From contig OZ241869.1 of the NCBI GenBank assembly GCA_965202805.1, positions 2,240,001 to 2,304,000 of the forward strand: a stretch of 64,000 nt of DNA. The letters are read 5' to 3'. The DNA is from Longimicrobiales bacterium. GTDB taxonomy: Bacteria > Gemmatimonadota > Gemmatimonadetes > Longimicrobiales > Gaopeijiaceae. Positions 53,766-64,000 of the stretch are shown piece by piece. Both the position numbers and the translations under genes were made by a program. Within the stretch, counting starts at the first letter, position 1. Every line of letters begins with the position of its first letter. The notes under the pieces were generated by a model. That model searched no databases and had not been told where the DNA came from. It saw only the letters and a list, made by a program, of their open reading frames with translations.

Positions 53766-53769
<4 letters not shown>
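52531..53769 (+). CDS. kbl: 2-amino-3-ketobutyrate CoA ligase (glycine C-acetyltransferase)
   Basis: [51 protein letters not shown]. Confidence 0.88.
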
Positions 53770-55625
<1,856 letters not shown>

Positions 55626-55704
55626 GGGCTTTCGGCCGTGCACCGGCGCATCAATTGGACGATACGCCCGGCACGAGGAGTACCGAAGAGCGTGTGTCCG
55701 TAAA

Positions 55705-55736
55705 ACTACTTGTGGTTCTACAAGTAATATTGTAGT
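55705..55736. promoter_or_regulatory. AT-rich operator/promoter with two overlapping palindromes upstream of the sigma-54 activator
   Basis: TACTTGT-N6-ACAAGTA (55707-55726) and CTACAA-N6-TTGTAG (55718-55735). Confidence 0.6.
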
Positions 55737-55744
55737 CTGGGGAG

Positions 55745-57268
55745 ATGCCGAACCTCCTGATCAGTTGGGTGGGTCAAGCTGACCTGCGCGCACCACGCGA
55801 AAGCCCTTCCGCCGGTGTGGGACCCATCGCTCAAGCTCTCACTGCGCGCTCCTATGACGCGGCGGTGTTGATCGCGGACTACCCGAAGGAAGAGGTAGCT
55901 CCGTTCCTGGATTGGCTCCGGTCTCGGAGTGAGACGGTCGTTATCGTCTGTTACGAGCCGTTGCCGGGGGGACCAACCCACTTCGGCCAGATCCACGAGG
56001 CTGTGGTCCGCGTCGTATCCGAGGCTCTCGAGCACCACGGAGAGAACGCCGGGCTCAGCTTTCATCTAAGTCCCGGGACTCCGGCCATGGCGGCCGTCTG
56101 GATCATCCTGGCGAAGACGCGCTTTCCGGCGGAACTCATCGAGTCATCGCGTGAGCATGGCGTGCGGACAGCCTCCGTCCCCTTCGACATCTCCGCCGAG
56201 TTCATCCCGGACCTCTTACGAGAGCCCGACCGGCGTCTCCAGAGCCTGACCGCCGGACTTCCGCCAGAAGCCCCGGAATTCACCGACATCATGCATCGCA
56301 GCCAGGCCATGGCCCGCGTGATCGCCAAGGCGCGTCGGGTGGCACCGCGGTCGGTTCCGGTTCTGATCGAAGGTGAATCCGGTACGGGAAAGGAGCTGCT
56401 GGCGCGGGCCATCCACCGGGCGAGCCCCAGGCGGAGCAAACCGTTCAAGGCGGTCAACTGCGGCGCGATCCCGTCGGAACTGGTTGAATCCGAACTGTTC
56501 GGCCACGAGAAGGGCGCGTTCACGGGTGCCGACAAGGCGAGAATCGGCTACTTCGAAGCCTCTCATCACGGTACGCTGTTCCTTGATGAAGTCGGCGAGC
56601 TGCCGCTTCCCGCACAGGTCAAGCTTCTTCGGACGCTTCAGGACGGGAGCGTCCTGCGTGTCGGTTCAACGACGCCGCGCCGCGTTGATGTGCGAATCAT
56701 CGCGGCCACCAATCGGATCCTCGTCGACGAGATCGTCGCCGGACGATTCAGGGAAGATCTGTTCTACCGCCTGGCGGTGGCCGGACTCCAGCTTCCGCCC
56801 CTCAGGGAGAGACAGGGTGACCTGGGCCTTCTTCTGGATCGACTGCTTGAGCGTGTCAACGAGGAGCACGGGGAGCAACCCGGATACGAGCACAAGCAAT
56901 GTTCTGTTGGCGCAAGAAATGTTCTTCTCTCCCATCCCTGGCCGGGGAACGTGCGGGAGCTGCTGAATACGCTGCATCGGCTCGCGATCTGGACTCCGGG
57001 CGCGACGATCCGTCGTGAAGACGTGCGAGAGGCGTTGCTGCCGGTGATCGGCGACGGCGAGACACGCATCCTTGACCGACCGTTGGGCAACGGCCTGAAC
57101 CTCCGGGATTTGCTGGCGGACGTGGCCAGGCACTACCTGGCACGCGCACTCAATGAGACCCGGGGCAACAAGACGCGAGCGGCTCGCTTGTTGGGCCTTT
57201 CGAGCTACCAGACGTTGACCAACTGGCTCAAGAAGTACGAGGTGGACGGCGAGTGGCACGGGTCTTGA
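55745..57268 (+). CDS. Sigma-54 enhancer-binding protein with N-terminal RtcR/CARF-like domain and C-terminal Fis-type HTH
   Basis: LISWVG..DL and FHLSPGTPAM N-domain; GESGTGKE, ESELFGHEKGAFTGA, LFLDEVG, FREDLFYRL, WPGNVREL; GNKTRAARLLGL HTH. Confidence 0.92.
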   Translation: MPNLLISWVGQADLRAPRESPSAGVGPIAQALTARSYDAAVLIADYPKEEVAPFLDWLRSRSETVVIVCYEPLPGGPTHFGQIHEAVVRVVSEALEHHGENAGLSFHLSPGTPAMAAVWIILAKTRFPAELIESSREHGVRTASVPFDISAEFIPDLLREPDRRLQSLTAGLPPEAPEFTDIMHRSQAMARVIAKARRVAPRSVPVLIEGESGTGKELLARAIHRASPRRSKPFKAVNCGAIPSELVESELFGHEKGAFTGADKARIGYFEASHHGTLFLDEVGELPLPAQVKLLRTLQDGSVLRVGSTTPRRVDVRIIAATNRILVDEIVAGRFREDLFYRLAVAGLQLPPLRERQGDLGLLLDRLLERVNEEHGEQPGYEHKQCSVGARNVLLSHPWPGNVRELLNTLHRLAIWTPGATIRREDVREALLPVIGDGETRILDRPLGNGLNLRDLLADVARHYLARALNETRGNKTRAARLLGLSSYQTLTNWLKKYEVDGEWHGS

Positions 57269-57269
57269 A
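57254..57269 (+). promoter_or_regulatory. Putative sigma-54 (-24/-12) promoter for the downstream ATPase operon
   Basis: TGGCACG-GGTC-TTGAA versus consensus TGGCACG-N4-TTGC(A/T); overlaps the activator stop codon. Confidence 0.65.
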
Positions 57270-57326
57270 CATGGGGACCGCCGGAGCACACCATCGTCCA
57301 CCCACAACCGGGAGCCTTGACATCCA

Positions 57327-60300
57327 GTGAAGCGATCTGAACTCGAATCCCGGGTGTCCGCGCTGCGGGATGCACACGGGGGGCACCAAGGCGGTTCTGC
57401 CGATGATGCTTACGGACCGTTCGTTGTTCCCCTCGCGGCGGCAATCCTGCTCCGGTGGGCGGAACACGCCGTGTCTCTCTCCCCGCGCTGGCGCGACCTT
57501 CGGGGACAGGAGTTGACCCGTTTCGTGGTGCAGGCACTTGACGCCGACCTGAAGGCTGACTTGGACCAAGAGGCACTGGATTGGTGGCTATTGTACATCG
57601 TTTTCGCGACCCACTACCTACATGGATCCCTTGCCGATTTCATCATAGACTGGGCTGTGGATTTAGATCTGGAGTCAGGTCGCAGGCGTGATGCGGCGAA
57701 CAATCCACTGGAGGGACTAATCGTCGGCTCAGCCAGCCATCTTCAACCAGGCAGAATCCTCTCCCCGGCCACGCCCAAGCCCGTCGCAAGGCTCATGGTC
57801 GATCTGGCGAATCCCCGCCCTGGAGAGCGCATTTATGATCCATGTTTCGGCCGCGGCGATCTGCTAACGGCGGCAGCCGGCAGACTCGCCGAACAGACCA
57901 GTCTCGTGCCGGAGAGCCTGGGAGATTCCAAGCAATTCTCTATTGGAGCCGGAACAGATGGTCCAGCGGTCGTGGTTGGGCTTGCCCGCATGGTTCTCGC
58001 CGGCATCGACGATCTGGGCTTCCAGTCATACGACGTGTTGAATCAGGCATCCGAGAGTGCGCCGTCTCCCGAACAGTTCGACTGCATTCTCTCCGCTCCT
58101 CCAGCGGGACGGAGGACGTGGGCGGGCGCCGCGGTCGACATCGAGACACAGGCCCTCCGGCACATGATGGCTTCTCTGCGTGAGGGCGGTCGAGCGGTCG
58201 TCGCCCTTCCCGAAGGCCTGCTGTTCAGGCGCGGCTTGGACCGCAAGGTCCGCCGGAAGCTTCTGTCCGACTTTCGGGTGAAAGGCGTGGTGTCGCTGCC
58301 GGAGGGGGCGTTCCAACCGTTCTCGAAGATCAGGAGAAGCCTGGTTCTCTTTCGCCGGGAGAAGCCCGCCCGGACGGTTCGGTTCCTCCAAGTGGAAGAA
58401 TGGCCGTCCTTTCGGCCCAACGACGCGCTTGCCCGCGAGCAAGCTCTGGAGACGGCGCGCACCGTCGCCGAAACGTTCAGGAATGGATCGTCGGACGACG
58501 ACGCGTGGGAGACACCGATTGCGAAGCTTGCGGAGCGCGGATGGGAATTAGTCGCGAAGAGAACGGGCGAAGAGAGTCTCTGCTATTCGCTCTCCGCTCT
58601 CGCCAATGAGAACGAGGGGTTCGAGGCACGACCACTCGGCGAAGTGGCGGAGATCTTCCTCGGTGTGCCCAATTGGAGCGGCACAGCTACGTCGGACAAG
58701 AATGATCCTTCCGTCGTCGCCGGCATCGTGCGTGCGGCGGACGTCGGGAAGCGACGCATCCGGAATCCGTCACGCTTCGTCACCGGCTCCCATGCAGCAA
58801 GAGTCCTTCTTGAGCATCGGTTACGGGTGGGAGACGTTCTGCTGAGTGTTTCCGGCACGGTCGGCAAGACCGGAGTCGTTTTCGAATCGTCCGATCTCGT
58901 CGGTGCGTTGGCTGCCCGCGGATTAGCCGTCATACGCCCTGGGCCGCAGGTGTCGCCGCTCTTTCTGAGACGCCTGCTGGCGTCCGAGACCTATCAGAAC
59001 TGGCTCCACGGGCATGCCCGAGGCGTATCGATCCAGCACCTCTCGGTCCAGGCCATCAGGCGTCTCCCTGTGCCCGTGCCTCGTTTGTCGATCCAAGAGC
59101 GTCTCCTTCGGCATGTATCCACACGCGACAGTGATGTACTCTCCAGATTCCGCCACATTCTTGGCGATGGCAGCTATTCGATAGATGTTTGGCTGCACGG
59201 CTCCCAAGTGCGGGCGGTACGTTCAGCTACCGATGCAGCTGACCGCCTAACACTCTTGGAGAAGACCGCGGACTCCCTCCAGGCGCTGCGGAATCAGGTG
59301 GTGCACGTTGACGGAAACGCGGAGCCGGGCCTGAATCGGTGGCTTCTGGCGCTCGCGGACTCGATGAGGACGTTCCAAGGTCTTAGCCACGTTCCCACCG
59401 GACCGGAGCGTGTGGCGATCCTCGATCGCGCGCAAGCGCGCATCGAGCGCATTCTGGCGGATCTCGTCAAGTCGTCTTCGCCAAATGCAGGCCCGGCGAG
59501 GAAGGCCACCCGCAGCATCTCCCGAATCGTTCGTTTGGAACGCGAGTCCATGCTGGAAAACGTGGAGATGGAACCGTTTGTCAGGCGGAGTTCGGTCCCG
59601 GCCGGGAAAGAAGCCGAAGTCCAGGTCTCGCTCAACAACCGGTCCCGTCTTGCCCTCCGCAACGTGTCGGTCTCGACCCGTCCGAATATCGGGGCTTCGC
59701 GCGTACCCTACCTGGCTGGTGAAAGGAAACTGAGTTTCCCTGTGCAAATTCCGGCAAGCGCGCCGGTGGGCAACTATCGGTTCCAGGTCCAGTGGCGAGC
59801 CGACCGGCTCGATGGCCAGCGGGTGCTCGGCGATGCTCCGCTCGCGGTCAGGGTCAGCGTAGCTCGAGAGACGGCTCCTCCGGGCGACCTCGGAACCAGC
59901 CCCTATATTGTCGGAAGCCCGATCGACCGGGACGAAATGTTCTTCGGTCGCGAGGACATCATCAACAAGATCCGCCGACAGCTTTCCACCCGCCACCGGG
60001 CCAACGTCGTCCTGCTGGAGGGCAACCGGAGGACGGGTAAGACCTCCATTCTCGGACGGCTACAGGCACCCGACGTGCTGCCAGGCTGGATCACGGTTAA
60101 CTGCTCGCTACAGGGAGGCGAGGGTCACGAAAGCAAGCCTGGATTGTCTACCAACGAGGTGTTCCGGCTAATGGCTCGTCATATCGGGTTGGCCGCTCAC
60201 GCCGCGGGGGTCCGCGTATGGTTACCCGACATGGATCCGCCCGACTCAAGGAAGCGGTTCAAGATCGCCTTCACCAAGGCCGTGCGGCAGGCATTCTCGG

Positions 60301-61151
60301 GTTCCCGACCCTTCGAGACGTTCGAACTCTTCCTACAGACCGTGATCGACACTGCAAAGCCTCGACGCATCCTCCTGATGCTCGACGAGTTCGACAAGCT
60401 GCAGGAGGGCATCGACAACGGCGTCACGAGCCCCCAGGTTCCCGAGAACATCCGCTATCTGTTGCACACCTATCCCGGCATATCCGCTGTACTGACCGGT
60501 TCCCGCCGTCTGAAGCGCCTTCGCGAGGAATACTGGTCCGCGCTGTTCGGACTCGGGCATCGTGTTGCCGTAAGCGAGCTTCGAGGGCGAGATGCGCGCC
60601 TGCTCGTAACTCGACCAGTGGAAGGACGACTCTCCTACGTGCCGGAGGCGAGAGACCGCGTGGTCAGTCTGTGCGCCCGGCACCCGTTCCTGATCCAATC
60701 CCTGTGCAACCGCATCTTCGACCGCGCCGCCGAGTCGGGCAGACGAGTCGTGACGGTCGGTGACGCGAACCGGGCCGCCAAGGAGATGGTGAGAGACAAC
60801 GAGCACTTCCGTACATTGTGGGACTACGCCGAAACCGAGCGGAAGAGATTTATTCTCGCATGGTGCCAGAGACTCCGAAGAGGACCGGATCCCGTTACTC
60901 TGAGCTTGCTTGAAACGAAACTCGAGGAATCAGGCGTCATCGTACCTCGCGGTCACCGTCTGGGAGACGATCTGGAGTTTCTCCGCGAACTCGAGCTCGT
61001 CAGGCTCGATAACCGGACGAGCGAGTCCGCGTACATGCTGGCGGTGCCATTGATGGGGATGTGGATCAAAGGCAGTATCGACTTTGAGAACCAGCGCCGG
61101 CGGGCGGTCCGCGAAGGCGAGGAACTGGATGATGGCGGTGAGGAATCATGA
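57327..61151 (+). CDS. Fusion: HsdM-like N6-MTase fold (motif IV degenerate) + HsdS-like TRD + Ig-like domain + STAND-type P-loop ATPase with probable wHTH
   Basis: IYDPCFGRG (motif I), FDCILSAPPAG (motif IV position), GRAVVALPEGLLFR, VVSLPEGAF; TRD GDVLLSVSGTVGK...LPVPVP..SIQ; SPYIVGSP..FFGRE, Walker A GNRRTGKT, Walker B LLMLDEFD. Confidence 0.85.
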   Translation: MKRSELESRVSALRDAHGGHQGGSADDAYGPFVVPLAAAILLRWAEHAVSLSPRWRDLRGQELTRFVVQALDADLKADLDQEALDWWLLYIVFATHYLHGSLADFIIDWAVDLDLESGRRRDAANNPLEGLIVGSASHLQPGRILSPATPKPVARLMVDLANPRPGERIYDPCFGRGDLLTAAAGRLAEQTSLVPESLGDSKQFSIGAGTDGPAVVVGLARMVLAGIDDLGFQSYDVLNQASESAPSPEQFDCILSAPPAGRRTWAGAAVDIETQALRHMMASLREGGRAVVALPEGLLFRRGLDRKVRRKLLSDFRVKGVVSLPEGAFQPFSKIRRSLVLFRREKPARTVRFLQVEEWPSFRPNDALAREQALETARTVAETFRNGSSDDDAWETPIAKLAERGWELVAKRTGEESLCYSLSALANENEGFEARPLGEVAEIFLGVPNWSGTATSDKNDPSVVAGIVRAADVGKRRIRNPSRFVTGSHAARVLLEHRLRVGDVLLSVSGTVGKTGVVFESSDLVGALAARGLAVIRPGPQVSPLFLRRLLASETYQNWLHGHARGVSIQHLSVQAIRRLPVPVPRLSIQERLLRHVSTRDSDVLSRFRHILGDGSYSIDVWLHGSQVRAVRSATDAADRLTLLEKTADSLQALRNQVVHVDGNAEPGLNRWLLALADSMRTFQGLSHVPTGPERVAILDRAQARIERILADLVKSSSPNAGPARKATRSISRIVRLERESMLENVEMEPFVRRSSVPAGKEAEVQVSLNNRSRLALRNVSVSTRPNIGASRVPYLAGERKLSFPVQIPASAPVGNYRFQVQWRADRLDGQRVLGDAPLAVRVSVARETAPPGDLGTSPYIVGSPIDRDEMFFGREDIINKIRRQLSTRHRANVVLLEGNRRTGKTSILGRLQAPDVLPGWITVNCSLQGGEGHESKPGLSTNEVFRLMARHIGLAAHAAGVRVWLPDMDPPDSRKRFKIAFTKAVRQAFSGSRPFETFELFLQTVIDTAKPRRILLMLDEFDKLQEGIDNGVTSPQVPENIRYLLHTYPGISAVLTGSRRLKRLREEYWSALFGLGHRVAVSELRGRDARLLVTRPVEGRLSYVPEARDRVVSLCARHPFLIQSLCNRIFDRAAESGRRVVTVGDANRAAKEMVRDNEHFRTLWDYAETERKRFILAWCQRLRRGPDPVTLSLLETKLEESGVIVPRGHRLGDDLEFLRELELVRLDNRTSESAYMLAVPLMGMWIKGSIDFENQRRRAVREGEELDDGGEES

Positions 61152-62713
61152 ACGACCGTCCGTACCAGGTCCTGGGCGATGGCGTTCCCCGGATGCTCGG
61201 TCGCAAGCGCATCTTTCGCAAGCTTCTTGGGCATTTGCTCAAAAACACACCGGATCATGTATGCGTTGTGGGGCCAACGCTATTCGGTAAATCGGTTCTT
61301 CTGCATCACCTCAGTTCGCACTTGAAGAGCGAAGACGATCATTACCTCACCTCGGTATACTGGGATCTCCGACACGGAACGCCCAGAACGGACGCCGAGT
61401 TCAGGGAGCGTCTTGCACAACGAGTCAGAGTTGCGCTGAAACCGGTGCGTGCCGACCTCGCGGAGTACCTGGATCCCGAAGATGAAGATCCCTTCGAACT
61501 GCTCGATATCGCCTTCGAGGAAATGCAAGGTGAAGGCCTCCGCCTTCTCGCCGTGCTCGACGGATTCGATCATGTTCTTGGTGGCGGGACCATTACCAGG
61601 AATTTCTGGGACAGAATGCGCGTGCTCGCCCAGCGCGGAAGTCTTCGGCTCGTGACCGGGAGCCGAGGAAGACTCCGGGAGCTTTGCAAGAGCGAAGACT
61701 CCCGGACTTCGGACTTCTGGGAGATTTTCTTCGATACGCCGCTCCAGGTCGGTTGCTTCGAAGAAGACGACTGGGATGGTTTCCTGGAGCCGTTCGCATC
61801 GAACGGCGTTGACGTTGAGGAACCCGCACGAAAAGAGCTGGCGAACTGGACCGGAGGCGTCCCGATTCTCGCCGCTTCATTGGCACAAAGGTTAATGGAG
61901 GACAGTGCGGTCACCGACTTGGTGACAAAGCCTTTCGTAGACCGAGTAGCGGGTGCGATGGCCAATGACGCTCCCGAGTCCATCCGCCAACTGTGGGATG
62001 ATTGCCCAGTCGAAGTACAGTCCCTGTTGACGGATCTTGGCAGCGGAGAGATTCCGGTCGGCGAGGTGCCGCCTGATCGTATTCGCTTCCTCAAGAGCCG
62101 GGGCTTCGTTGAGACTTCAGGCGGAAAGCTGCGATCTGCCTGCCGGCTGATGAAGGAATTTGCCCGTCAGCGCCAAAGTGAAGTCACAACCCTTCGACGC
62201 CTATTCGGCGACGAGGATCGGTTTGAAGCAAACCTTCGAGGGTTGCTCGAACTTCGTTTGGAGGGCATCAAGAATCGAGTGGATCCGACATTGGCTGGCT
62301 ACGCACTGAAGGCGATCCGGGAACTACCCGAACCTGATCATGCGATCGTGTGGATGCGAAGCTTCTCCGAGACAGCACTTGACCTGATCTGGAATGCAGA
62401 GCTCGAGCGTGACGACTCACTGCCAGAGGCCTGGGAGACCAGTGGGATTGAATTCGACGAGCACGATCAACTGCCCGTGAGTCGCGGCAAGCAGTGTGGA
62501 ATCCTCCGCAAGGCGACCGGCTCGGCGAACACCCCCCGGGTTACCAGATTTCTGACGAAGCCAGCGTTCCTGTTGCTGGACCATCTGCACGCCGTTGGGG
62601 ACTTCGGACAGCACAGGGAAGGAGCAACGATATCCGTGCCAACAGCCGCCGCCTTTTGTCTGTCGGCGATCGAGCTTTGCGAGAGGCTGGCTTGCGATCT
62701 GCCGAGGAGGTAA
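61148..62713 (+). CDS. Second STAND-like P-loop ATPase with C-terminal HEPN/DUF4145-like helical domain
   Basis: PY...MLGRK, Walker A GPTLFGKS, Walker B LAVLDGFD, WTGGVP; C-terminal MRSFSETAL...LHAVGDFGQH; ATGA-coupled to the upstream gene. Confidence 0.75.
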   Translation: MNDRPYQVLGDGVPRMLGRKRIFRKLLGHLLKNTPDHVCVVGPTLFGKSVLLHHLSSHLKSEDDHYLTSVYWDLRHGTPRTDAEFRERLAQRVRVALKPVRADLAEYLDPEDEDPFELLDIAFEEMQGEGLRLLAVLDGFDHVLGGGTITRNFWDRMRVLAQRGSLRLVTGSRGRLRELCKSEDSRTSDFWEIFFDTPLQVGCFEEDDWDGFLEPFASNGVDVEEPARKELANWTGGVPILAASLAQRLMEDSAVTDLVTKPFVDRVAGAMANDAPESIRQLWDDCPVEVQSLLTDLGSGEIPVGEVPPDRIRFLKSRGFVETSGGKLRSACRLMKEFARQRQSEVTTLRRLFGDEDRFEANLRGLLELRLEGIKNRVDPTLAGYALKAIRELPEPDHAIVWMRSFSETALDLIWNAELERDDSLPEAWETSGIEFDEHDQLPVSRGKQCGILRKATGSANTPRVTRFLTKPAFLLLDHLHAVGDFGQHREGATISVPTAAAFCLSAIELCERLACDLPRR

Positions 62714-62792
62714 GGTGTCGGCAGCGCTCCGTACGATCTTGCCGTCAGCCCGCGCAACCTCAGCCCCCCGGACGCGATGGGGAGCCGGAGGT

Positions 62793-63248
62793 TCAGGCCA
62801 GCAGCGCCTCTCCCCTCCGGAGCGGATCCCGGATGCGCAGTTCCGGGAAGAGCATGAAGTCCCGGTCCCGGGACAGGAGAACCTCGACCCCGTGCGCGAC
62901 GCAGATCGCGGCGACCCGCGCGTCGTGCACCACGCCCCCGTGCACGCGCGGGCGCCGGATGAAGGGTCTCAGCGTGGCGGGAAAGTCGTCGGTTTCGCCG
63001 ATCAGGCGATTCGATGGCGACGCGGCCCATGCTTCCAACTGTCGCCACGCCCGGTCCGAGGTGCTCGCCTCCTCCTTCCGTATTCGGCGGTTGGTGACCA
63101 CGCTCAGGAACTCGAAGCAGCAGGGCCAGGGGATGGCCCACGGGTGGCGCCCCTCCGCCAGCCTTCGCATGATCTCCCGAGCGGTCGCGTGCACCCGCGA
63201 TTCCCGGCGGTGCGCTTAGACCAGCACGCTGGTGTCTACGGCGATCAC
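62793..63248 (-). pseudogene. vapC: VapC PIN-domain toxin with a nonsense codon at position 11
   Basis: Minus strand reads VIAVDTSVLV*AHRRES...EFLSVVT...VHDARVAA...SRDRDF; TAA at 63216-63218 where the family pattern DTxxLVYAH has Tyr. Confidence 0.85.
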
Positions 63249-63484: not shown

Positions 63485-64000
63485 GTGCCAAATGGAGGTT
63501 CGGACTGCTGCGGCACCTGTTGGTTCAACCGCGCAAACGGAGGGAGGATGGGAAGCTCCCGTCATGACGATTCCATCCCGAGCCATTGCGAGATCAGGGA
63601 TCTGGCGATCGAGGATCCCTTTTATACCTACTGCTCGAATCATCCGTACCGGATGCAACGGCGGGTCCCGGTGCCCCTGGGCCCGGTGTACGTCCATGTC
63701 GATGAGTCGTTCGAGCGCGACGGAGAGACCTACTACACGCACGGGCGCGAGATCTGGGTGCATGCGCCCGACACCGACGAGGTTCGCAGCCAACTCCTTC
63801 GACTCCTGGAGGAGCCCGGCAGCGCGTCCGATCACTACCCGTTCTACGGTGACGACCTGTTGGGAGTCGTCGTTGACGAACTCGAGAGACTCCGCGAGCC
63901 GCGTGCCGTCTCCATCCTGGAGCGCGTTGCGGAAGAGGTCCGGGGGCACGAGGAGGCCTCCGAAGGCGTTCGGGACGCGCTCGCGAGGATTCGCAAGGCG
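63485..64000 (+). CDS. Cys/His-rich N-terminal domain protein with helical (HEAT-like) region; partial, runs off window
   Basis: AAGGAG RBS at 63471 and GTG at 63485; open to 64000: MPNGGSDCCGTCWFN...HCEIR...PFYTYCSNHP...LERLREPRAVSILER. Not in the ORF track. Confidence 0.75.
   Translation, partial: MPNGGSDCCGTCWFNRANGGRMGSSRHDDSIPSHCEIRDLAIEDPFYTYCSNHPYRMQRRVPVPLGPVYVHVDESFERDGETYYTHGREIWVHAPDTDEVRSQLLRLLEEPGSASDHYPFYGDDLLGVVVDELERLREPRAVSILERVAEEVRGHEEASEGVRDALARIRKA

Follow-up and report, generated by a model that had tools for sequence, protein, structure and literature searches.

A sigma-54-linked pair of STAND-like ATPases with parts derived from type I restriction enzymes: an apparently undescribed candidate guard system in a Longimicrobiales bacterium

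PspF-like and RtcR-like activators are known to head type I restriction-modification (RM) operons (PMC4012209; PMC11090510), and the guard protein PrrC of EcoprrI, an NTPase with a HEPN domain, is encoded together with a type I system (PMC3710099). In Ronin, from Escherichia coli ECOR55, an HsdM-HsdS decoy without hsdR is reported to work with a motif IV mutant and to arrest the cell when set off by Ocr, ArdA or Aop1 (bioRxiv 10.1101/2023.04.06.535777). The STAND receptors known from bacteria consist of one chain each, with a C-terminal sensor that recognises structural proteins of phages. Here we describe a three-gene cassette in a 64,000-nucleotide stretch of a Longimicrobiales genome (assembly GCA_965202805.1, contig OZ241869.1, positions 2,240,001 to 2,304,000; hereafter the window, from whose first letter all coordinates are counted). 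It consists of an activator gene (G1), a gene in which an HsdM-like methyltransferase (MTase) and a half-HsdS target recognition domain (TRD) are fused to a STAND-like ATPase (G2), and a gene for a second STAND-like ATPase with a HEPN-like tail (G3). Overall, we believe that it represents a real, widespread and apparently undescribed system, one that seems to work like the known guards and decoys of RM enzymes and to be a member of none of them.

The likeness to Ronin lies in HsdM and HsdS parts without hsdR, with a decoy role that is reported for Ronin and proposed here. Ronin, however, has separate hsdM and hsdS genes and a 61-aa membrane toxin (ronA), whereas the cassette joins HsdM and half an HsdS to a STAND ATPase, adds a second STAND protein with a HEPN-like domain and a sigma-54 activator, and fills its insertion with three large genes. 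With PrrC, whose role is that of a back-up, the cassette shares an NTPase and a HEPN or HEPN-like domain linked to type I RM; but PrrC has one ABC-type NTPase and an Rx4-6H HEPN domain and guards a real enzyme from within hsdMSR, whereas the cassette has two STAND-like ATPases, a HEPN-like domain lacking the arginine and a built-in pseudo-enzyme. Avs/AVAST and NLR-related STAND proteins have in common with it a STAND-like switch with candidate sensor and effector parts (PMC13581612), but an Avs is a single chain whose effector is N-terminal and whose long sensor is C-terminal, whereas in the cassette the candidate sensor stands at the N terminus and the effector would sit on a second chain; the domain maps differ, and no PADLOC Avs model matches. 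That 2026 census kept only C-terminal regions of at least 400 aa, and the term "methyl" does not occur in its main text, nor MTase or Hsd terms in seven of its supplementary files. Two linked STAND proteins, one with a copy of a pathogen target, are also found in the plant paired NLRs RRS1/RPS4, RGA4/RGA5 and Pik (PMC9528088), which we cite as an analogy only; the cassette is without leucine-rich-repeat, TIR and coiled-coil domains, and we claim no descent. To type I HsdM and HsdS (5ybb) the relation is one of homology in MTase fold and TRD, but the cassette differs from a type I enzyme in having no hsdR, a motif IV that reads SAPPAG, one TRD instead of two, and the ATPase fusion. Nor is it the eight-gene mad operon of MADS, to which there are weak domain-level matches (MADS2, 41.6 bits against a cut-off of 720), and among the PADLOC and NCBIfam system models G2 and G3 find matches at the level of domains only. 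Full-text searches of literature outside subscription papers yielded no description of the architecture, and none stands in the accessible parts of papers on BREX, Dnd and ternary systems or of a preprint on embedded systems; the Esub1 structures belong by their listing to an unrelated study. A preliminary description of the window, made from its sequence alone, had likewise recognised no named system and had suggested novelty, which apparently holds for the fusion and the pair, and does not hold for the activator and its RM link: G1 falls in the PspF-like/RtcR-like family, and its promoter position and the link to hsdRMS match operons already published (PMC4012209, PMC11090510). The accessible parts of those two papers contain no discussion of the fusion, the partner, a dead active site or a form free of RM genes.

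The three open reading frames (ORFs) follow glnS (53766-55625) in the same orientation: G1 (55745-57268, +, 507 aa), G2 (57327-61151, +, 1274 aa, GTG start) and G3 (61148-62713, +, 521 aa). Their GC contents at third codon positions (0.75, 0.71 and 0.64, against 0.92 for glnS) agree with the atypical codon usage reported in the preliminary description, as does the ATGA overlap with its coupling of the two ATPase genes; this overlap is confined to G2 and G3, and 58 nt separate G1 from G2. G2 begins with an HsdM-like helical part and an N6-methylase fold (residues 1-420; 57327-58586, +), in which Pfam N6_Mtase spans residues 149-399 (E 1.5e-23) and whose closest solved relative is the type I HsdM 5ybb (E 3e-24). 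Its motif IV is SAPPAG, the acidic residue of motif II is a glycine, and the catalytic asparagine and the aromatic residue are gone, so that the methylase of this copy is probably catalytically dead. A single HsdS-type TRD follows, equivalent to half an S subunit (residues 430-605; 58614-59141, +; PADLOC Specificity_I, E 1e-14; extent about 437-600). A dimer of a single-TRD half-S could supply two TRDs, as in half-S mutants. The alignment then places a linker (residues 606-850; 59142-59876, +) that is probably helical and then beta-rich, judging from its sequence pattern, and that gave no Pfam match and a blank ESM Atlas search. The STAND-like ATPase (residues 851-1274; 59877-61151, +) has an intact Walker A (GNRRTGKTS) and an intact Walker B (LLMLDEFD); its Pfam matches, AAA_16 and nSTAND6, are below threshold, and its profile finds no solved relative by sequence (best E 0.44).

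A profile of the C-terminal half of G2 retrieved 1063 clusters at E 1e-30, and our family counts rest on the best 150 of them, of which 117 are at least 1100 aa long and serve as representatives. Among these, 116 carry MTase and TRD (a single TRD in all but one) and one carries a helicase, and with this outcome we rejected the idea, for the best 150 of the 1063, that the STAND half is joined to many different N-terminal domains; the fusion of MTase, TRD and ATPase is thus kept in at least 116 clusters at 50% identity. Walker A is retained in 114 and Walker B in 112 of the 117. Two variants may be recorded here, P0273, a G2-type ATPase fused to a DEAD helicase, and P0292, a G2 into which the N-terminal domain of DnaB is inserted, perhaps as a second bait.

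The preliminary description had called the methylase dead, which fits this copy and, as far as the motifs can tell, not the whole family. The first residue of motif IV is N or D in none of 112 close homologues (the 112 of 119 that cover the motif) and in 55 of 116 distant ones, 39 of the 116 have a canonical [ND]PP[FWY], and NPPW is present in 4 of the 16 G2s in the loci that we fetched. On a FastTree tree of the ATPase with 114 tips the catalytic residue changes 27 times, where shuffled labels give 38 changes on average; from these counts catalysis appears labile and not uniformly dead. At the same time, the MTase-TRD half appears to be under purifying selection, since the ratio of nonsynonymous to synonymous substitution (dN/dS), taken pairwise among three close copies and carrying no confidence limits, is 0.31-0.34 for the MTase and 0.19-0.38 for the TRD, with 0.13-0.15 for the G2 ATPase. 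That half has also been swapped between the backbones of close relatives. Between the window and locus L002, dS is 0.7-1.1 in the N half of G2 against 0.2 in the ATPase, and DNA identity is 0.61-0.77 in six of the seven 300-column windows spanning about 57390-59430 (0.88 in the seventh) and 0.80-0.95 outside them; the N halves of P0004 and P0008 agree at 89-97%, their remaining parts at 67-83%.

G3 opens with a predicted STAND/Cdc6-like ATPase and winged helix (residues 1-340; 61148-62167, +). Its model (pLDDT, or predicted local distance difference test, 88.5) matches Cdc6/Orc proteins, the archaeal ATPases 2qen and 2fna and NLRs in Foldseek, and the modelled order of P-loop, helical and winged-helix domains is that of the STAND/Orc-Cdc6 fold. 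Walker A is intact, and Walker B, DGFD, lacks the catalytic glutamate in 114 of 114 homologues, which suggests that G3 may bind ATP and not hydrolyse it. The remaining residues (341-521; 62168-62713, +; dN/dS 0.16) form a helical domain that in the model is HEPN-like. Folded alone (pLDDT 83.8), it ranked the HEPN protein 2hsb first among 48,161 chains (Z 11.2, root-mean-square deviation 2.6, 112 aligned residues), with the HEPN proteins 1wol, LsoA, sacsin, HepT and Csm6 also high in the ranking, and its motif spacing resembles by eye that of DUF4145-type HEPN domains; an ESM Atlas search came back blank. R404, G484, G487 and H489 are invariant. The tail thus keeps its histidine and lacks the arginine of the HEPN RNase motif, a combination for which other HEPN families are listed in PMC3710099. 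The HEPN-like fold of the preliminary description stands as a modelled bundle with 2hsb on top, whereas the Rx4-6H arginine is absent from the homologues examined. A search for longer forms of G3 returned one, P0386, a G2-G3 chimera carrying deletions, and we do not count it as a natural fusion.

G2 and G3 mostly occur together and are predicted to touch. With duplicates merged, G2 precedes G3 in 19 of the 24 loci with enough upstream DNA (three more are too short to judge), so that the gene order whose conservation the preliminary description proposed to check is largely kept. The joint model that it also called for gave a score of 0.83 for the G2 ATPase (residues 854-1269) with G3, against 0.00 for the best control, with runs that agree in at least 96% of contacts and a partner pLDDT of at least 81. 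For comparison, 116 of 157 solved complexes attain that mark, as do 2 of 215 mismatched pairs, counts that hold only roughly because the analysis's own alignments were used. In the model G3 packs against the ATP-site face of G2, the face on which neighbours in AAA+ rings pack; the predicted contacts involve G2 residues 857-871, 901-906, 927-940 and 1021-1024 and G3 residues 150-164 and 184-198.

G1 has the domains and motifs of a PspF2-type RtcR-like activator: residues 3-500 match the PADLOC model RtcR_PspF2, CARF-AAA-HTH, at E 1.8e-196, Pfam finds Sigma54_activat and HTH_8, and a CARF-like domain precedes a sigma-54 AAA+ domain with intact Walker A, GAFTGA and Walker B motifs and a Fis-type helix-turn-helix (HTH). 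The host genome encodes rpoN, and a -24/-12 site lies downstream; by sequence G1 reads as the intact enhancer-binding protein that was first proposed. The promoter-like site, TGGCAC-N5-TTGAA (57254-57269, +), overlaps the G1 stop. Its -12 element, TTGAA, departs from TTGCA/T, and a strict consensus excludes it; a relaxed pattern has it as the sole match in the window, with a chance figure of 0.02 that is optimistic because the pattern was relaxed after the site had been seen. The main support comes from conservation across homologues and not from the pattern test: all of the distinct homologous loci with G1, 11 of 11, have such a site between -19 and +3 nt of its stop, and 8 of them show a full TTGC(A/T) element. 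Sigma-54-like sites are also present behind a collapsed G1 in L012 (482-713, a remnant of the first 30 and last 43 residues, with the site still before G2) and before hsdR in L083. Nonetheless, no comparable site precedes the operon in four G2-G3 loci where no G1 is seen (L024, L025, L026 and L038), so that the sigma-54 gating of the preliminary description would be common and not obligatory.

Other details of the control region differ from locus to locus. In L038 a WYL gene stands upstream in place of the CARF activator; in L015 (4354-5803) two genes without a Pfam family are inserted between promoter and G2; and in L007 (1939-2420) two perfect sigma-54 sites bracket a frameshifted stub, by eye a DUF4145-type HsdR N terminus, which suggests that a different hsdR was deleted there. 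Directly 5' of G1 in the window we see by eye a three-half-site motif, TTG-N6-CAA-N6-TTGTA (55707-55738, +), which 9 of 10 homologous loci also show, again by eye, ahead of their G1, and a pattern derived from it has two matches in the genome, this copy among them; it may serve the G1 HTH as operator or enhancer. Near the G1 3' end no consistent motif emerged when an enhancer was sought, and no sigma-70 site was found in the region.

The origin of the pair, which the preliminary description had overlooked, can be read from its relatives. Complete hsdRMS sets accompany 3 of 19 G2-G3 loci, upstream in L010 and L024 and downstream in L005; an hsdS lies at the contig end in L013; and hsdR genes with lost catalytic motifs stand directly before G2 in L026 (nuclease motif) and L038 (helicase motifs). 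In L005, L008, L009 and L028 the promoter is followed by a stub of the HsdR 5' end (E 5e-27 to 0.006), that of L009 being joined to an HsdS 3' end. The preliminary description had regarded routine adjacency of hsdR in other genomes as telling against its proposal, and in part this is what the relatives have, with full-length hsdR adjacent in 5 of 19 loci and scars in four. Because hsdR is adjacent in these loci and deletion scars mark others, we believe that the pair arose inside type I RM operons and is by origin an accessory of PspF2-regulated type I restriction operons; given the intact, degenerate and scarred forms, the window cassette would be the stripped end of the series. A recent duplication of a neighbouring hsdM was considered and rejected, since the G2 MTase is only about 30% identical to the co-operonic or neighbouring HsdM in L010 and L024. 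Supplementary File 4 of PMC4012209 (2014) lists for Desulfococcus oleovorans an activator-hsdR-hsdM-hsdS order followed by 158521274, which has the Pfam set of G2 and is labelled there only as a methylase; its likeness to G2 is one of annotation only. The hsdRMS-G2-G3 operon of L024 (11889-20620) adjoins Tn7-like transposition genes.

We favour, with about half of our confidence, a second-line guard derived from type I RM operons, in which the pseudo-HsdMS is bait for anti-restriction proteins. In such a guard, G1 would drive the sigma-54 promoter at its own 3' end, a step strongly supported by conservation, and would answer a nucleic-acid damage signal, perhaps RNA ends or another ligand, by analogy with RtcR (PMC11090510). 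The non-catalytic HsdM-TRD half would then resemble a type I enzyme in its methylase-specificity core and serve as bait for phage or plasmid anti-restriction proteins, for example DNA mimics. Engagement of the bait would switch the nucleotide state of the G2 ATPase, held in the modelled heteromer with that of G3, and as the weakest step this switch would free or dimerise the HEPN-like domain of G3 and bring about cell arrest. A bait needs shape and not chemistry, so that the catalytic residue could drift and the real hsdRMS be lost while the pair was kept; we favour this reading because the module has been kept after losing both, and because Ronin's HsdMS acts as a decoy without methylase activity. 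The trigger and the output are what we infer here, and they build on the architecture, promoter conservation, pairing, selection, module exchange and RM origin seen in sequences and models. Taken further, the cassette might be a bacterial counterpart of the plant paired NLRs with an integrated decoy, comprising a sensor STAND with an exchangeable pseudo-HsdMS and a helper STAND whose HEPN effector is non-canonical, assembled as a hetero-oligomer under ligand-gated sigma-54 control, an extension that we put forward tentatively and think somewhat unlikely; that the decoy includes a pseudo-HsdR as well in some loci is an equally tentative addition.

A number of observations weigh against the guard reading. 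The Z of 11.2 for the G3 tail falls short of about 13, the value below which the tool advises caution with helical bundles, its Foldseek support is weak (E 0.5-1), none of 24 members gave a credible Pfam match, and hhalign against DUF4145 reached a probability of 1.6% (E 0.032, from a 5-row alignment). The Rx4-6H arginine is missing, with Q, H or Y at position 481 and G at 484 in 114 of 114 homologues. In L002 (10001-11487), a close relative with a different N-terminal allele of G2, the loss of about 95 bases has split G3. In 5 of the 24 informative loci no G2 lies upstream of G3, one lineage accounting for three of the five, and the score of the complex may owe something to similarity with AAA+ heteromers of solved structure, for example ORC/Cdc6 or RFC. 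The cassette site appears to be no defence island, and where a bait has to be induced, its synthesis can only follow the start of infection.

A close rival, rather unlikely in our judgement and still a defence function, is that the MTase-TRD half still binds a DNA sequence and reads its methylation state, or senses depletion of S-adenosylmethionine (SAM), and works the same G2-G3 switch. A third of distant G2s look catalytically intact, with the canonical motif IV counted above; the SAM-binding acid is kept in 112 of 116 and the aromatic motif IV residue in 92 of 116, so that sensing of DNA or SAM fits these relatives equally well, and the swapping of the TRD-bearing half resembles an exchange of specificity. 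True HsdS TRDs, however, are hypervariable, and the variation of the TRD here does not exceed that of the neighbouring parts (mean identities are 0.54 in the TRD, 0.60 in the MTase and 0.43-0.54 in the linkers); moreover, the window copy is conserved despite having lost the motif II acid, the catalytic asparagine and the aromatic residue. Decidedly less probable is a role as an accessory or regulatory subunit of type I enzymes, with G2 docking by its HsdMS-like half on HsdR or HsdM and the ATPase pair tuning restriction or assembly; by the same improbable account the HEPN-like domain would be a non-catalytic dimerisation module and the cassette would act in trans on a distant type I system of the host. 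Such a system exists about 1.67 Mb away, with NPPY and DEAH motifs, the pair shares operons with intact hsdRMS in three loci and in the D. oleovorans table row, and the HEPN arginine is absent; but hsdRMS has been lost repeatedly while the pair was retained, H489 and R404 are invariant, and the host HsdR is similar to that of L005 (39% over 1007 aa) and unlike the kind that is co-operonic upstream of G2. That the cassette is a decaying relic of an RM operon without present function is very improbable and already largely refuted by the selection data, for even though MTase motifs have been lost to a greater extent in this lineage than in the family, and G3 is split in L002 and G1 collapsed in L012, all three genes of the cassette keep an open frame, every domain tested has a dN/dS below 1 (0.05-0.67), the Walker motifs are invariant, and both the promoter and the fusion, in those 116 or more clusters, are conserved.

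If the guard reading is true, it adds to the single-chain receptors a two-chain STAND design whose N-terminal sensor derives from a restriction enzyme. The loci grade from a complete RM operon, by way of degenerate hsdR and deletion scars, into a cassette free of RM genes, and this series makes a transition from guard to decoy testable; if the tentative integrated-decoy extension holds, the family records the stepwise turning of a restriction enzyme into an immune bait. Regardless of the specific mechanism, the cassette gives the PspF2 CARF activators, for which we found no reported ligand, a concrete conserved promoter and target operon, and it offers a HEPN-like domain with an unusual active site.

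The cassette is a clean insertion of about 7.1 kb after glnS (55626-62782, from the glnS stop to the end of a PIN-type gene), and it holds three genes only, with no integrase and no hsdR. The post-glnS region could be compared in 17 of the 18 other genus genomes, of which one has the cassette and 16 do not; glnS directly abuts the PIN-type gene in 10 of these 16. G3 is present in 3 of 19 genus genomes, each time at the glnS/PIN site, G2 and G3 together occur in 3 of 401 sampled phylum genomes, the same three genus carriers, and the G1 CARF domain in 5 of the 401, a patchy distribution. The rest of the window consists of housekeeping genes, as judged from their sequences without a family scan, and so the cassette does not appear to lie within a defence island; the defence-island setting raised in the preliminary description is not borne out here, where most cassette-free relatives simply run glnS into the PIN gene. 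Its statement that the window has no hsdR is correct for all 64 kb, the nearest genome matches lying at C1:626 kb and 509 kb, and is to be qualified by the broken PIN-type gene downstream and by the distant type I system. Elsewhere, no G2 or G3 relatives were found in viral contigs, nor any in phage records, which were searched with G2 only, and Acinetobacter plasmid records gave three matches. The lineage with G3 and no G2 beside it (L018-L023, L030) has G3 between a divergent glutamine amidotransferase gene and a membrane protein. In the host's type I system (G000:C1:619851-629095) an 863-aa gene is embedded between hsdM and hsdS, and two ORFs that we name McrBC-like by eye precede it. Contigs of one public sequencing run, which may be the source sample, tile the locus without differences. 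The PIN-type toxin-like gene, named from its sequence pattern (62793-63248, -), lies directly downstream and has an in-frame stop at codon 11; its frame is open in relatives, and it belongs to the empty site and not to the cassette. Beyond it runs a Cys/His-rich ORF (63485-64000, +) that matches no family, and several relatives, cassette-bearing or cassette-free, have an ORF at that place.

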